Shown here piece by piece: positions 116 through 5,132 of a stretch of 5,132 nt of DNA. The notes under the pieces are model-generated. The model did not search any database, was not told the DNA's origin, and saw only the letters and a program-made list of their open reading frames with translations. Position 1 is the first letter of the stretch, and the number at the start of each line of letters is the position of its first letter. The stretch is taken from IMG/VR virus record IMGVR_UViG_2636416161_000006; one strand, 5' to 3'. Source of the DNA: a virus (Duplodnaviria; Heunggongvirae; Uroviricota; Caudoviricetes). Made by a program: the position numbers and the translations under genes.

Positions 116-209
116 AACGTGACTGAATTGATGAGCACAACATCTGGCTGGCATTAGAGAGTGTTTTACGAAATCTGAACACCACATCACTGGTTTCAGT
201 GGGAGATTG

Positions 210-668
210 ATGATGAAGATAATCGCAAAGGCTTTTCATCATGTATTTGGCAAAGTATCCGATTTGCCATCTGTAATACCGATGAACAACAGAAGGGAGA
301 TGCTGCTTGATGTGGTTGTGTTCCCATACATAGACCTTTCTGAACCAATGAAAGCAACTCTTTTCAGAAAGTATCTTGGCGACTTTAAACGCCGTTTTAC
401 AGGCGTTAACGGGATGGTTGATATCTGCTCCATCAGAGATATTGTTGAACTTGCAGGGATTAATTTGTGGGGAGAAGCGGCAGCAGCATACAAATGGCTT
501 GAACGCCTGCACTGTGTTTCATTCAGTGACATGAGTGCTGATATCGCTTTAATGGTTCCTCACAAAATCAATATGGTCTTTGCTGGTGGCAATTACACTT
601 ATCCATGGAACCAGGAACAAAGAGAGAACAGGAAAGCTCACGCCATGAAGAGTAATGCGACTCCATAA
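210..668 (+). CDS. Hypothetical protein, about 152 aa; possible helix-turn-helix or winged-helix DNA-binding segment (SIRDIVELAGINLWGEAAAAYKWLERL)
   Basis: ORF-track frame 207..668. GGGAGA at 201-206 is an SD-like element, so ATG at 210 (or 213) is a more plausible start than TTG at 207. Stop TAA 666-668, followed by an intrinsic terminator. The overlapping minus-strand ORFs look spurious. No family recognised. Confidence 0.7.
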   Translation: MMKIIAKAFHHVFGKVSDLPSVIPMNNRREMLLDVVVFPYIDLSEPMKATLFRKYLGDFKRRFTGVNGMVDICSIRDIVELAGINLWGEAAAAYKWLERLHCVSFSDMSADIALMVPHKINMVFAGGNYTYPWNQEQRENRKAHAMKSNATP

Positions 669-720
669 ATATAGTTTTTAGAGTCCATAAAAAAACTGTC
701 AAAACCTGACATACAGAACG

Positions 721-753
721 ATGCCACCAGCTACTGAACGGTGGCATTTTTTT
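721..753 (+). terminator. Rho-independent terminator: stem ATGCCACC / GGTGGCAT (8 bp), 11-nt loop, then a run of seven T
   Basis: Perfect 8-bp inverted repeat 721-728 / 740-747 followed by TTTTTTT (747-753), about 55 nt after the stop of the 210-668 CDS. The T-run is on the + strand only. Confidence 0.75.
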
Positions 754-785
754 GTGCTATTTGTTTCATATTTTGCAATCACAAT

Positions 786-815
786 GATGAATGTTGCGTT
801 TTATGAAACTATAAT
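786..815 (+). promoter_or_regulatory. Candidate sigma70 promoter for the 849-4598 operon: perfect -10 TATAAT (810-815) with a weak -35 (GATGAA/ATGAAT/TGAATG at 786-793)
   Basis: Consensus -10 hexamer 34 nt upstream of the first start codon of the unit and directly downstream of a terminator. The -35 matches TTGACA at only about 3 of 6 positions. Transcription start not determined. Confidence 0.45.
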
Positions 816-817
816 GA

Positions 818-833
818 CTGTTGTTTTATACAG
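818..833 (+). promoter_or_regulatory. LexA-box-like (SOS box) palindrome CTGTTGTTTTATACAG (CTGT-N8-ACAG)
   Basis: Matches the invariant CTGT and ACAG half-sites of the gammaproteobacterial LexA consensus TACTGTATATATATACAGTA, with an AT-rich centre. Lies between the -10 hexamer and the SD, a typical repressor position. Only one such site occurs in the window. Confidence 0.55.
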
Positions 834-848
834 TTCTAAGGGGGCGTT

Positions 849-1022
849 ATGGCTATTTCAGTAAAGCCAGTATTGATAAGTGAGAAGCAAATGGAAGCGA
901 TAAAGAAAATTCAGGAGGAGCAGCGTAAAAAATCAGAGGTAGGAGTTGCGCCAACGATCCACGAAATTGCTCGGGGATTAATGGATAAGGCGCTGGCTTA
1001 CACTTTAACTGGACGTGGGTAA
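849..1022 (+). CDS. Small protein, 57 aa (MAISVKPVLISEKQMEAIKKIQEEQRKKSEVGVAPTIHEIARGLMDKALAYTLTGRG); possible ribbon-helix-helix DNA-binding protein
   Basis: Not in the supplied ORF track, probably below its length cut-off. Strong SD AAGGGGG (838-844) 4 nt before ATG 849. Stop TAA 1020-1022 lies 4 nt before ATG 1027 of the next ORF. Pattern of short N-terminal strand (KPVLIS), helix, turn and helix resembles CopG/Arc-type RHH proteins. Fold assignment is inference. Confidence 0.65.
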   Translation: MAISVKPVLISEKQMEAIKKIQEEQRKKSEVGVAPTIHEIARGLMDKALAYTLTGRG

Positions 1023-1026
1023 ATCA

Positions 1027-2493
1027 ATGGCTACGTGGCAACAGGGTATTAATTCTGGTGGTTTTCTGGCTGGCATCGGTACGCAAAATGAGAATGCGCC
1101 AAAGGCAAGCGACATTAACGCAACGCTTGGTCTGATCCGCGAAAACAATGAACTGGCTCGCTCAGGTGCAAATAACGTTGCTCTGACAGGTCTTCGTGGT
1201 CTGGCTGGAGTTGCTGATATTTATAAGCAGCAGCAACAGCAGGAGCGTAAAGCGGCATTCCAGAAAGGTTATGCAGATGCTTATGCGTCCGGTGACAGGG
1301 AGCAGATGCGTAATCTTATTACAGCATTCCCAGAAGAGTTTGAGGAAGTCCGTAAAGGGATGAGTTATGTCGATGATGCTCAAAGGGATGATTATGGCAA
1401 TCTGGCGCTCAAAGCACAGGTAGCCTCATCGCTTGGTCCGGGCGCATTTGGCAGGTTCATGATGGATAATGAGCAGGAGATGCGTCGTTTAGGTATCCCT
1501 CCAGAAACTATTGCTGAAATGCAGGTTAATGACCCGCAGGGCTTCCAGCATTTCGCAGGTAATCTGGCGCTGTTTTCTCTCGGTCATGAGAAGTATTTCG
1601 ATATCAAAGATCAAATGGAAGGTCTGGATATTGAGCGTGGCAAGTTGGCAGAGACAATCCGCAGCAATCAGGCTGGCGAGGCACTTCAGGCGAGAGGGCA
1701 GGATATTAGCCGAGCAAATGCGTTAACGTCAGCATATGCACCAACAGCAGCAATGCAGAATTACAATCAGTACGCTCAAATGTTAAAGGCGGATCCTGAG
1801 GGGGCTGCGGCATTTGCGGCAGCGGCGGGAATTAATACAAACGCCAAAAAATTAATGAGTGTTAGAGAAAACGATGATGGCACTGTCACAAAATACTACA
1901 CAGACGGAAGTGAAGAGCAGGGAAAACTAAACCAGCCAATATCTGGAGATGGGTTTCGTCCAATAGCTTTGCCAACAGCCCAAAAGATCATGGAAAAGTC
2001 GCCAGAAGGGGCTAAAAAAGCTGCTGGATTTGCATACAGAGTTAGGGATGCTCTTGATTCAATAGATACACTGAAAGACCAGCTTAGCCCACAGCGAGTG
2101 GCGATCATTAATAATGCTTTGGGTAATGGGACGCTGGCTAACTTAACGCTCAGCCCAACAGAGCAGCAATACGTTGTTAATGCTAATGACGCAATAATGG
2201 CAATACTCCGTCAGGAAACAGGGGCAGCTATCGTACCTGCTGAAATGTCAAAATATTATCAAATGTATTTCCCTCAGCCTGGCGACTCCACAAAAACCAT
2301 TGATACCAAGCGCCGGAAGATGGAAAACCAGTTCAATTCGCTGAAAGCTGCTTCTGGTCGAGCTTATGATGCTTTGCGGGTTATTTCAGCAGTTGACAGA
2401 GGAACTTCTTCTTCGTCGCAGACATTGCCGCAATCTGAGCAGGTATCACAGCCAGCAGCCAGCAGTAACTTTTCTTCACTATGGGGTGATTAA
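1027..2493 (+). CDS. Hypothetical protein, 488 aa from ATG 1027 (492 aa if GTG 1015 is used); Gln/Ala-rich, low-complexity, no hydrophobic segment, function unknown
   Basis: Uninterrupted ORF of about 1.47 kb. ATG 1027 follows the upstream stop by 4 nt (translational coupling), with weak SD-like GTGGGT at 1015-1020. Its stop TAA 2491-2493 overlaps the next start in TAATG. Contains a QQQQQ run and Ala-rich tracts. No Walker, HxH, nuclease or other catalytic motif recognised. Confidence 0.9.
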   Translation: MATWQQGINSGGFLAGIGTQNENAPKASDINATLGLIRENNELARSGANNVALTGLRGLAGVADIYKQQQQQERKAAFQKGYADAYASGDREQMRNLITAFPEEFEEVRKGMSYVDDAQRDDYGNLALKAQVASSLGPGAFGRFMMDNEQEMRRLGIPPETIAEMQVNDPQGFQHFAGNLALFSLGHEKYFDIKDQMEGLDIERGKLAETIRSNQAGEALQARGQDISRANALTSAYAPTAAMQNYNQYAQMLKADPEGAAAFAAAAGINTNAKKLMSVRENDDGTVTKYYTDGSEEQGKLNQPISGDGFRPIALPTAQKIMEKSPEGAKKAAGFAYRVRDALDSIDTLKDQLSPQRVAIINNALGNGTLANLTLSPTEQQYVVNANDAIMAILRQETGAAIVPAEMSKYYQMYFPQPGDSTKTIDTKRRKMENQFNSLKAASGRAYDALRVISAVDRGTSSSSQTLPQSEQVSQPAASSNFSSLWGD

Positions 2494-4598
2494 TGGCTAA
2501 AGCATGGAAAGATGTTATCGCCTCTCCACAGTATCAGGCGTTAGCACCAGAACAAAAAGCGCAGGCTCAGGAGCAATACTTCAATGAAGTCGTGGCCCCG
2601 CAAGCCGGAGAAAGTGTAGAGCAGGCTAAGCAGGATTTTTATGCTGCCTATCCACTACCATCAACGAATGAAATAGACCGATCCCAATCAGCAACTCAAA
2701 ATATTCAACATACATCATCTGATAATTCTCTTGCGTCAGGGTATGCAAAGTTAGCTACTCAGCAAAGAGAGGGGCTTGAGCGTTCAGCAGAACAGGGAGC
2801 CAGTCTTGGGGCTGCGATGCGCGATGCTATAACAGGCGAAAGCCGAATGACTCCAGAGATGGAGAGACTGCAAAATGTCGACCTTGCCCCAGAGTTAACC
2901 TCACTCAGCATGGATGCTCTAAAAGCTCGATGGTCTCAACTTTTCGGCTCTGACGCATCTCAGGAAAAGATTCTTCAGAGCATGGGAGCGAAATTAAGGC
3001 AGGATGAGAAGGGTAACACTATCGTTTCCCTGCCATCCGGTGATTATGCTCTGAACAAGCCGGGTTTATCGCCGCAAGACGTGGCATCGTTTCTGGCTAA
3101 TGCGCTGGCGTTTACACCAGCGGGCAGGGCTGGAACGGTGCTTGGTGCCATAGGAAAATCAGCAGCTACAGATTTAGCACTACAGGGAGCCACCAGCCTT
3201 GCTGGTGGAGAAGATATTGATCCGTTACAAACGGTAATTTCTGCTGGCATTGGTGGTATTGGTAAGGGGCTGGAAAATACAGCGAGTGCGGTTTCGAGGG
3301 CTGTTCGTGGTGATATGTCGCCTGAAGCAAAGGCTGCTGTCAACTTTGCATCGGAAAGAAATCTGCCGTTAATGACCAGTGACATGCTGAAAGATAAAAC
3401 CTTTATGCAGAGTCAGGCTCAGACATTAGGCGAAAGAGTTCCTTTTTTTGGAACCGGTAAGAATCGGCTGAATCAACAACAAGCACGAGAAAATTTAGTC
3501 AGAACATTTAGCGATGGTCTGGGTGGCATTTCTGATAAACAGCTTTATGAATCTGCGACTAAAGGGCAACAAAAATTCATTGAGGCAGCAGGAAAGCGAT
3601 ATAACCGCATAATTGACGCTATGGGGGATACCCCTGTCGATCTCTCAAACACGGTAAAAGCTATCGACAATCAGATTGCCGTGTTAAGCCGCCCGGGCAA
3701 ATCTCAGGATAGAGCCGCGGTAAAAGTCTTGCAGCAATTTAAAGACGATATCACCAGCGGACCAAATGACCTGCGTCTGGCGAGGGAAAACAGAACCGAT
3801 CTTCGAAAGCGATTTATGGCGTCATCTGACACTGTTGATAAAGATACGCTCCAGAAAGCCAGCGATATTATCTACAAGGCATATACGGCGGATATGAAAA
3901 AAGCCGTAGCCAAAAATCTTGGAGCAGACGAAGCCATTAATATGGCAAGGGTTGATCGCTCATGGTCTAAATTCAATGACATGATGGGAAGAACGCGCGT
4001 TCAAAAGGCAATAGCCAGCGGCAAGGCCACGCCTGAGGATGTAACAAAACTCGTTTTTAGCCAAAGCCCATCAGAACGTTCTCAGCTTTACAGGCTTCTG
4101 GATGACAATGGTAGGCAAAACGCACGAGCAGCCATAGTTCAGAATGCTGTAGATAAGGCGACTGATCCGTCTGGAAATATCAGTGTTGAGAAGTTTATTA
4201 ATGCGTTACACCGGAACAGGAAGCAATCAGCAACTTTCTTTAAAGGCGTACATGGAAAGGAACTGGACGGCGTTATTAAATACCTCAACGATACAAGACA
4301 CGCGGCAAAAGCGAACGTTCAAAACTTAAATGGTCAGCAGCTTTATGGATTGTTAGTTGGTGGTGGCATCATAAACGCAGCAGTATTAGCGGGGATGCTA
4401 AAAACGGCTGCGTTTGTTGTTCCTGCTGCTGGTGCCGTAGGCGGAGCAGCGAAGGCATACGAAAGCCCTGTTATACGAAATGCCTTGTTACGTCTGGCAA
4501 ATACGCCAAAAGGTAGCACAGCATATGACAGAGCGATCAGTACGGTCACACAATCACTGACCACAGCAGCACAAGCATCGCAAAAGGAAGCTCAATAA
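2493..4598 (+). CDS. Hypothetical protein, 701 aa; mostly hydrophilic and low-complexity with a C-proximal Gly/Ala-rich hydrophobic hairpin (about aa 617-653); possible membrane-inserting protein
   Basis: Uninterrupted ORF of about 2.1 kb. SD GGGGTGA (2483-2489), ATG 2493 overlapping the upstream stop. Hydrophobic stretch LYGLLVGGGIINAAVLAGMLKTAAFVVPAAGAVGGAA is encoded at 4341-4451. Stop TAA 4596-4598. No family recognised. Confidence 0.9.
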   Translation: MAKAWKDVIASPQYQALAPEQKAQAQEQYFNEVVAPQAGESVEQAKQDFYAAYPLPSTNEIDRSQSATQNIQHTSSDNSLASGYAKLATQQREGLERSAEQGASLGAAMRDAITGESRMTPEMERLQNVDLAPELTSLSMDALKARWSQLFGSDASQEKILQSMGAKLRQDEKGNTIVSLPSGDYALNKPGLSPQDVASFLANALAFTPAGRAGTVLGAIGKSAATDLALQGATSLAGGEDIDPLQTVISAGIGGIGKGLENTASAVSRAVRGDMSPEAKAAVNFASERNLPLMTSDMLKDKTFMQSQAQTLGERVPFFGTGKNRLNQQQARENLVRTFSDGLGGISDKQLYESATKGQQKFIEAAGKRYNRIIDAMGDTPVDLSNTVKAIDNQIAVLSRPGKSQDRAAVKVLQQFKDDITSGPNDLRLARENRTDLRKRFMASSDTVDKDTLQKASDIIYKAYTADMKKAVAKNLGADEAINMARVDRSWSKFNDMMGRTRVQKAIASGKATPEDVTKLVFSQSPSERSQLYRLLDDNGRQNARAAIVQNAVDKATDPSGNISVEKFINALHRNRKQSATFFKGVHGKELDGVIKYLNDTRHAAKANVQNLNGQQLYGLLVGGGIINAAVLAGMLKTAAFVVPAAGAVGGAAKAYESPVIRNALLRLANTPKGSTAYDRAISTVTQSLTTAAQASQKEAQ
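3190..3208. other. Back-to-back Chi octamers forming a perfect palindrome CCACCAGC-CTT-GCTGGTGG
   Basis: GCTGGTGG (E. coli Chi) on + at 3201-3208 and its reverse complement at 3190-3197, i.e. Chi on the minus strand. Additional Chi octamers at 582-589 (+) and 724-731 (-, inside the terminator stem). Confidence 0.6.
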
Positions 4599-4659: not shown

Positions 4660-5058
4660 TTAACACTTGCCTTTAACATTGCCGACAAATGAGCCTGTAA
4701 ATGAGCCTATATCAGATCGACTAATTGTTCGTGTATGGATCACTTTTCCGTCATTTGAGATTGCCCATGTGACAAGCGTCAGTTGACCATCTCGATAGCT
4801 TCTTCCCATCATGGCATTCGGAGATAGCGGGTAATAATCAATACCTCCACCTATACCATCTTTTGCCAAGATAAGATCCGCCTTCTCTTTACTTATTACC
4901 AAATGAAATGTATCTGGTATAGATGATAACTTATAGTTATACCCATCTGAACTTGAGGCTTCTTGTCCTTTCAGATCACCAATAATCCAGCATTCAGCGT
5001 TCGCTCCAAAAGAAGCAAATAATAAACCGGAGACAACCAATCGCTTCAATTGATTCAC
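4660..5058 (-). CDS. Small secreted (periplasmic) protein, 132 aa precursor with a predicted Sec signal peptide (MNQLKRLVVSGLLFASFGANA, cleavage after ANA); mature domain of about 111 aa begins ECW and ends in Cys
   Basis: ORF-track frame 4660..5121. An internal GTG (5056-5058) is preceded at 6-nt spacing by the strong SD AAAGGGAGG and gives a textbook signal peptide (N-terminal K/R, hydrophobic core, AxA site). The upstream ATG at 5121 has no SD within the window and would add 21 non-signal residues. Not a lipobox (E at -1). About 42 percent GC by hand count of several lines. Confidence 0.75.
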   Translation of the reverse strand: MNQLKRLVVSGLLFASFGANAECWIIGDLKGQEASSSDGYNYKLSSIPDTFHLVISKEKADLILAKDGIGGGIDYYPLSPNAMMGRSYRDGQLTLVTWAISNDGKVIHTRTISRSDIGSFTGSFVGNVKGKC

Positions 5059-5132
5059 ACCAACCCTCCCTTTAGCGTTGTTTAGAATGGCAATTGGATT
5101 TGCCCCTATATTTCCAGACATCTGTTATCACT

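Follow-up and report, generated by a model that had tools for sequence, protein, structure and literature searches.

A predicted LexA operator at the promoter of a DNA-ejection operon in a PICI-type phage satellite

The operon, its promoter and the LexA-like box

The DNA analysed here is a stretch of 5,132 nucleotides (nt), called the window in what follows, from the virus record IMGVR_UViG_2636416161_000006. Chromosomal DNA of many Escherichia coli strains matches it, and in strains AHM8C212RI and ISHS7 it is contained in an insertion of ~17 kb between the genes yicC and dinD. The window is part of a phage satellite of the phage-inducible chromosomal island (PICI) type and extends from its putative replication origin through a terminator into the late zone, where a small leader gene is followed by homologues of two ejection proteins of phage P22. 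We deal mainly with the promoter of this operon and with a 20-nt element next to its -10 hexamer that we predict to be an operator (box) of LexA, the repressor of the SOS response to DNA damage. The features of this region are the following.

713-756, plus strand: intrinsic-terminator-like hairpin and T-run (terminator scan; inverted repeat I2)
764-778, no strand: upstream palindrome-like element TTTCAT-ATT-TTGCAA, 15 bp (alignment of 17 lineages)
794-808, no strand: second palindrome-like element TTGCGT-TTT-ATGAAA, 15 bp (conserved columns in the family and clade alignments)
810-815, plus strand: -10 hexamer TATAAT (sequence; invariant in a 14-sequence E. coli/Serratia clade and nearly so family-wide)
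816-835, core 818-833, no strand: predicted LexA box GACTGTTGTTTTATACAGTT (heterology index 6.24; conserved arms)
838-844, plus strand: Shine-Dalgarno sequence AAGGGGG, 4 nt before the ATG at 849 (sequence)
849-1022, plus strand: leader gene of 57 amino acids (aa), heading every operon of this type (45 homologues)
1027-2493, plus strand: homologue of P22 gp20 (ejection/DNA-transfer protein), 488 aa (PF16928 Inj_translocase, 1.3e-83; phrog_917, 4.5e-143)
2022-2041, no strand: weaker LexA-like 20-mer TGCTGGATTTGCATACAGAG (heterology index 8.51; 0.01 expected per 5.1 kb)
2493-4598, plus strand: homologue of P22 gp16 (ejection/DNA-transfer protein), 701 aa (phrog_770 'DNA transfer protein', 2.1e-161, residues 19-700)

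The identity of the gp20 and gp16 homologues rests on PHROGs and Pfam; the NCBIfam copy searched gave no match for any protein of the window. Some RefSeq genomes label the 701-aa protein 'P22-gp16 family phage DNA ejection protein', and the gp20-like gene shows, along some parts of its length only, 87-92% nucleotide identity with gene 20 of P22-like phages. The three genes are tightly packed, with a gap of 4 nt between the first and the second (1022/1027) and a gp20 stop codon that overlaps the gp16 start (TAATG at 2493), which fits a single three-gene operon. Upstream, the terminator consists of a stem at 730-745 followed by ATTTTTTTGT (the arms of repeat I2 are at 713-728 and 740-755), and it is predicted to insulate the operon from upstream transcription.

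Within the promoter, the bases GA (816-817) separate TATAAT from CTGTTGTTTTATACAG (818-833), a core of the form CTGT-N8-ACAG (CTG-N10-CAG) that has exactly the spacing of gammaproteobacterial LexA sites. The box starts 2 nt past TATAAT and ends 13 nt before the ATG, and the predicted transcription start (~822) falls within it. The hexamer, the core and the Shine-Dalgarno sequence can all be read in the sequence where a first-pass annotation of this DNA had placed them when it proposed SOS (LexA) control of the operon. That annotation had also put the random expectation of a CTGT-N8-ACAG at roughly 0.1 per 5 kb, which is of the right order of magnitude: the core occurs once in the window when both strands are scanned, and dinucleotide-preserving shuffles contain a mean of 0.04 per window (at least one match in 9 of 200 shuffles).

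Similarity to known LexA boxes was expressed as a heterology index (HI) following the formula of Berg and von Hippel, which Lewis et al. reportedly used as well. The matrix was built from 18 E. coli LexA boxes (PMC3009722, Table 4). The 20-mer at 816-835 has an HI of 6.24 on its better strand (AACTGTATAAAACAACAGTC). As the matrix is our own and does not use the Lewis et al. set, its absolute values should not be set directly against thresholds from the literature. Within this matrix the 18 training boxes range from 0.27 to 9.29 (0.58-12.8 when each is left out in turn), which places the site mid-range among bona fide boxes, together with uvrB and ruvA; the heterology index check that the first-pass annotation had suggested thus came out in its favour. 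Random sequence of the window's composition (20 Mb) gives an expectation of 0.0013 sites per 5.1 kb at an HI of 6.24 or below. The flanks also fit the LexA consensus, with A at position 2, T at position 19 and TAT/ATA beside the arms. Throughout the 17-kb island this is the only strong LexA-like site besides the intragenic one of HI 8.5 at 2022-2041. The latter lies inside the gp20-like gene and is probably not regulatory; other E. coli copies of the island keep it at HI 8.0-8.5, but in coding sequence such conservation says little. The known box of dinD scored 2.14, which is only a check that the scan works, as dinD is one of the training sites.

Compared with the SOS boxes of E. coli, the site has the same CTG-N10-CAG motif, an AT-rich spacer and an HI in the range of uvrB and ruvA (same matrix). 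The boxes of sulA, umuDC and the colicin promoters lie just after the -10, and the predicted placement over the -10/+1 region is shared with them. Colicin promoters, however, have double overlapping boxes where the window has a single one, and unlike the core SOS genes this box is found on a mobile satellite island. The promoter also departs from E. coli SOS promoters in lacking a -35 element and in having two extra conserved palindromes.

Conservation across related loci

To place the promoter in a wider context we used 74 related loci across Enterobacterales, comprising those with a homologue of the 57-aa protein in assemblies, GTDB genomes and IMG/VR together with five diverged E. coli copies. 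The homologues are found in Serratia, Klebsiella, Raoultella, Erwinia and other genera. Each of these loci has the leader gene behind a replication zone of the primase type and at the head of an operon of helper virion genes, and the same promoter can be recognised in all of them. Its plan consists of two palindromes, TATAAT, two variable bases and CTGTAT..., and a -35 element is lacking throughout.

A CTG-N10-CAG box with an HI between 4.2 and 9.1 is present at the same position in 30 of the 74 loci, which belong to five lineages and contain nine distinct 20-mers. Its carriers include E. coli, another Escherichia species, Serratia, Erwinia, Lonsdalea, Pantoea coffeiphila and IMG/VR contigs. 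In the clade formed by E. coli, Serratia and the IMG/VR contigs L033-36 (14 sequences), TATAAT, CTGT and TATACAGT are invariant, while the left part of the spacer differs (TGTTT, GTCTA, ATCGT) and so do both flanks; the lone exception is Leclercia, in which both arms are mutated. The arms are thus kept while the spacer drifts in this clade, a pattern that is not universal in the wider family. Within E. coli the promoter was found in 499 of 5426 complete genomes (about 9%). In five copies that we fetched, among the most diverged listed (90.9-95% identity over 121 nt), the 16-bp core is the same as in the window, and the sole change in their 20-mer is a G to A at position 1 that lowers the HI to 5.14. 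Judged from these alignments, the conservation is as would be expected under selection for LexA binding in the lineages that have the box.

Several observations weigh against LexA as the controller of this promoter, or at least as its general controller. The spacer of the box (TGTTTTAT) deviates from the (TA)n consensus. The -35 is weak, the best candidate at 17-bp spacing being ATGAAT (787-792, 3 of 6 bases matching), and an extended -10 was looked for at the promoter and is absent, so that transcription may stay silent without an activator even once LexA is gone. A consensus promoter scan did not list the promoter at 810-815, because of this weak -35 and the lack of an extended -10, and our promoter call rests on the conservation of TATAAT instead. 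Almost half of the loci (35 of 74) carry a form that is one base shorter, CTG-N9-CAG, typically ACTGTATAAATATCAGG, with an HI of 12.7-17.4, and 9 of the 74 have neither form. Strong conservation of the N9 form is seen in Klebsiella, Raoultella, Rahnella, Pantoea and Chimaeribacter (e.g. L006, 5974-5993; a Klebsiella example of this natural variant is TACTGTATAAATATCAGG); this form scores as a non-LexA site and should not bind LexA. LexA control therefore appears dispensable for the promoter family as a whole. It would be lineage-specific, and an indel of one base could be enough to gain or lose it. Finally, lineages that lack the box also have an invariant TGT at 819-821, so something else, for instance the start site or the 5' untranslated region (UTR), must account for part of the conservation.

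The promoter seems to belong to the satellite and not to the phage genes that it precedes. In the P22-like phage ST104 the ejection genes are within a long late operon that has no promoter of its own for them, and no LexA-like site was found upstream of genes 14, 7, 20 or 16. The private promoter with its box, like the leader gene, is therefore a feature of the satellite.

One natural disruption of the site was seen in E. coli UPEC129 (L076, 2501-4510), where the ISL3-family element ISEc53 and a clbS/dfsB-like gene are inserted exactly within the LexA box. The insertion is flanked by an 8-bp duplication of TGTTTTAT and leaves the -10 and left arm on one side and the right arm with the operon on the other.

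Proposed regulation and alternative explanations

Taking all this together, we think it likely that the site is a LexA operator that gates the late operon of the satellite by the SOS response, with a second control probable. LexA control is well supported for the E. coli lineage by the score, the position and the pattern of conservation. The proposal of the first-pass annotation that the three downstream genes are inducible by DNA damage is accordingly upheld in silico in that lineage, with the amendments that the control is lineage-specific and that LexA is probably not the only regulator. The predicted operator (816-835) covers the expected start (~822) of a promoter with a perfect -10 and no -35. 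In an undamaged cell a LexA dimer bound there would block RNA polymerase. After DNA damage, RecA-stimulated self-cleavage of LexA would free the promoter, and the leader protein and the gp20- and gp16-type ejection proteins would then be made. The RecA signal is also what induces P22/lambdoid-type helper prophages. The timing would therefore coincide with the induction of SOS-inducible P22-like/lambdoid helpers (the P22-like type of the helper being suggested by the cargo alone), and the injection proteins of the satellite could be available for the virions that carry it while helper virions are being assembled. The palindromes would bind a second regulator, LexA being one of two locks.

The two palindrome-like elements are present in all 17 aligned lineages, with a family consensus of TTKCAW-N3-WTGMAA and a distance of 30 bp between their centres. 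TTTC (764-767) does not vary in any of the 17. The second element abuts the -10 and occupies the spacer and -35 region, and its form in Raoultella (L011) and Pectobacterium (L021), TTTCATTTTATGAAA, is perfectly palindromic. Since the -35 is missing and one of the two palindromes fills its place, we suggest that they probably bind a second, satellite-encoded regulator and that LexA is probably one of two controls on the promoter. The most economical candidate for this regulator is the 57-aa leader protein itself, as it is the only gene that is always linked in cis to the promoter, whatever the type of cargo. It has 16 residues that are invariant across the 45 homologues, and its AlphaFold model (pLDDT 75) shows an extended N-terminus followed by two helices (12-28 and 37-53). 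Searches in Pfam, PHROGs, NCBIfam and PADLOC gave no match for it, and a profile search of the PDB and a Foldseek search with the model returned only noise. By sequence or fold (Pfam, PDB, Foldseek) it has no match to a ribbon-helix-helix family, with which only the topology of the model is compatible. The strand of ribbon-helix-helix proteins forms only in the dimer. That the leader protein might be a small DNA-binding regulator of ribbon-helix-helix-like topology is a guess from the model.

Two other kinds of regulatory gene were seen in islands of this type. Genes of the PerC family recur in them (L001, 21576-21863; L008, 4978-5247; L071, 4167-4448), lying just upstream of the leader promoter in some cases and downstream of the cargo in others, and they are candidate activators for a promoter without a -35. 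In Raoultella-type islands without a LexA box, a fusion of HTH_3 and Peptidase_M78 domains (ImmA/IrrE-like) is encoded upstream of the promoter (L011, 3863-4969; L012, 3430-4536) and could be an alternative route to the sensing of damage or of the helper.

How much of the control falls to LexA is a question on which the same observations may be read differently. In the alternative that we rate most probable, LexA binds but is a secondary gate, and the main control lies with the palindromes and a regulator of the satellite or the helper, either an activator (needed for want of a -35) or a repressor, a part that the 57-aa product could play. In the absence of a helper phage, DNA damage would then be insufficient to turn on the operon. 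We consider this a substantial possibility, though one with less than an even chance. The lack of both a -35 and an extended -10 speaks for it, as do the invariant TTTC/TGAAA-type half-sites in 17 of 17 lineages, with the second palindrome filling the -35/spacer, and the fact that in more than half of the 74 loci the promoter does without a LexA box. Moreover, the Gram-negative PICIs described so far are induced via the helper phage and not by SOS, their induction being helper-dependent through alpA (PMC6092414). Against it, a protein that binds the palindromes is still only hypothetical, the 57-aa protein has no detectable membership in a DNA-binding family, and a perfect TATAAT can support some transcription alone.

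As the most serious rival we regard a reading in which the site is not a LexA site at all, being instead a conserved start-proximal part of the promoter (initial transcribed region or 5' UTR) or the operator of a satellite protein. It would resemble a LexA box only since a single base separates the ancestral CTGTATAAATAT-CAGG from such a box. That a constraint of this kind exists is shown by the N9 forms: TGT at 819-821 is invariant, ACTGTATAAATATCAGG is kept in many genera at HI values at which it would be unable to bind LexA, and a single-base indel interconverts the two forms. It does not account, however, for the behaviour of the lineages that have the box. There the right arm, ACAG(T), is invariant too while five spacer positions and both flanks vary, the nine different 20-mers all keep an HI below 9.1, and the positions flanking the arms match the LexA consensus as well. 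In addition, the CTG drifts in N9 lineages (GATTAT, AACTTC, GGTTGT) and does not in N10 lineages, Leclercia excepted. We therefore hold this reading to be unlikely.

A chance match has some appeal in that intergenic promoter DNA is AT-rich and so is the LexA spacer, but the expectations given above for the core and for the HI, together with conservation at the same position in several genera, make it very improbable. Still less credible is that the inverted repeat acts as an RNA hairpin of the 5' UTR affecting translation or stability, which we rejected on a z-score of -0.38: CUGU/ACAG and the flanking bases can form a 6-bp stem, but the minimum free energy of -8 kcal/mol is equalled or bettered by 70 of 200 shuffles, the Shine-Dalgarno sequence is outside the structure and the transcript probably starts inside the left arm (~822). 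Late promoter sites of the P2/P4 Ogr/Delta type have the form TGT-N12-ACA and lie near -55. A site of that type was rejected here because neither the spacing (N8) nor the location (at +1) fits.

The satellite island and its cargo

The first-pass annotation had compared the operon, in being damage-inducible, with colicin genes, prophage antirepressors and some toxin-antitoxin and mobile-element modules. By its gene content it is no colicin, antirepressor or toxin-antitoxin module but the late zone of a PICI-type satellite with P22 gp20 and gp16 homologues. On one strand, the island encodes a tyrosine integrase, a 72-aa helix-turn-helix (HTH) protein, AntA, Ash and a TOPRIM/DUF927 primase (L001, L002); the 72-aa protein corresponds to Phage_AlpA/HTH_17 (AlpA family) in the Serratia relatives. 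As in PICIs, the integrase is at one end and is followed by an alpA-type regulator, co-oriented genes and the primase, and the size lies between 10 and 20 kb, at a specific chromosomal site and without a full set of phage structural and lysis genes: the gp20 and gp16 homologues are the sole phage-type structural genes in the ~17 kb. The order of integrase, AlpA-like HTH, AntA/Ash (Bro-type), primase, origin and late genes is shared with Gram-negative PICIs and agrees with their four-zone plan of integration, Bro, replication and late zones (PMC10111431; PMC6092414), whose late zone contains late genes taken over from the helper (PMC10111431). In the PICIs described so far these are mostly capsid, terS or rpp genes, whereas the late genes of the window encode DNA-injection proteins. 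We also considered that the cargo might be flanking genes of a helper prophage split by a helper-embedded PICI (PMC10111431), and rejected this for the yicC-dinD locus because the chromosomal genes yicC and dinD flank the island and more island genes come after the cargo.

The cargo varies by lineage. The gp20 and gp16 homologues of the window keep the gene order and the overlapping junction of the P22 set 14-7-20-16, of which genes 14 and 7 have been lost in this copy. Elsewhere the cargo is either the full P22 gp14/7/20/16 set or a tape-measure protein preceded by a small open reading frame (ORF); further types combine a transglycosylase-domain tape-measure protein with Dit-like and hub proteins, or consist of internal virion proteins bearing lysozyme domains or of a baseplate hub. 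No capsid gene was found among ~20 cargo ORFs annotated from representative loci and, as far as can be judged from the annotations, all of the annotated cargo consists of parts of a DNA-delivery apparatus. Sister islands in E. coli (L013, L028-L037) have the same promoter in front of gp14-like (153 aa), gp7-like (225 aa), gp20-like and gp16-like genes, and operons of delivery proteins with the same leader and promoter were seen in other genera (L008, L010, L017, L021, L038, L041, L055).

The closest analogue that we found is operon I of the pathogenicity islands (SaPIs) found in Staphylococcus aureus, a LexA-regulated operon for packaging and capsid remodelling (Ubeda et al. 2007, cited in PMC3152322). 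It is a satellite operon that acts on helper virion assembly and is timed by the SOS signal that induces the helper prophage, as proposed for the window operon, while its genes (terS, cp1/cp2, ptiA and capsid-size genes) have no homologous counterpart in the window operon (57-aa protein, gp20, gp16). The LexA motif is of the Gram-positive type in SaPIs and of the gammaproteobacterial type in the window, and the satellite lineages differ. The resemblance thus appears to be one of regulatory logic only, an analogy and not a homology.

The capture of helper late genes by Gram-negative PICIs is known already (PMC10111431), and the SOS box is ordinary in itself. What the open-access literature that we found leaves unexplained is how the late genes of Gram-negative PICIs are expressed; in that literature no LexA box, dedicated late-zone promoter or 57-aa leader is mentioned, and searches on satellites with ejection or tape-measure proteins and on the RefSeq protein accessions gave no description of this operon. 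If the proposed regulation is right, a LexA operator in the late zone would give the satellite a direct, helper-independent line to the DNA-damage signal, in parallel with SaPI operon I and as a case of convergent regulatory logic. SOS-inducing antibiotics (quinolones, mitomycin C) would then switch on the injection proteins of the satellite. Sister promoters one spacer base apart, with or without a LexA site, would amount to a natural experiment on the coupling of satellite transfer to SOS.

On a more tentative level, and with some doubt, we suggest that the leader and promoter module may define an as yet undescribed sub-family of PICI-type satellites in Enterobacterales, with a late zone devoted to helper genome delivery. 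Its cargo (P22 gp14/7/20/16, siphovirus tape-measure proteins, tail hub and Dit-like proteins, or lysozyme-domain internal virion proteins) would track the type of helper, and virions would be given the satellite's own injection proteins, SOS-timed in several lineages. Possible benefits would be an escape from the superinfection exclusion of a resident helper prophage or a wider host range, and several lineages would be timing production directly by the SOS response of the host and not by the helper.

Upstream of the operon the window contains two further features, at the end of the replication zone.

3-119, no strand: putative satellite replication origin (repeat families D1-D3, inverted pairs I1-I11)
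207-668, plus strand: ORF of 153 aa in the accessory slot beside the primase gene (RefSeq 'hypothetical protein')

In the first, direct iterons (GTTGGTTCA, three copies, 3-35) and three inverted ones (TGAACCAAC, 72-119) flank an AT-rich core, and the iteron region lies directly 3' of the stop codon of the TOPRIM/DUF927 primase gene (L001). PICI origins sit just downstream of the primase gene (PMC6092414), and the layout at 3-119 is that expected of a putative PICI replication origin. The 153-aa ORF had no match in Pfam, PHROGs, NCBIfam or PADLOC. The slot next to the primase is a known immune hotspot of PICIs (PMC11364771), and in Klebsiella and Raoultella relatives it contains AriA/HEC-02-like AAA ATPase defence genes (L006, 3348-5330; L010, 3384-5310).

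At the other end of the window, a convergent ORF on the minus strand (4660-5058 in RefSeq copies) with a signal-peptide-like N-terminus matches phrog_2651, a family with no assigned function. It follows gene 16, in the slot of the sieA/immI-region genes of P22-like phages. Beside its 5' end, positions 5095-5132 are the terminal ~38 bases of IS2, which explains the thousands of plasmid and genome matches at the right edge of the window.

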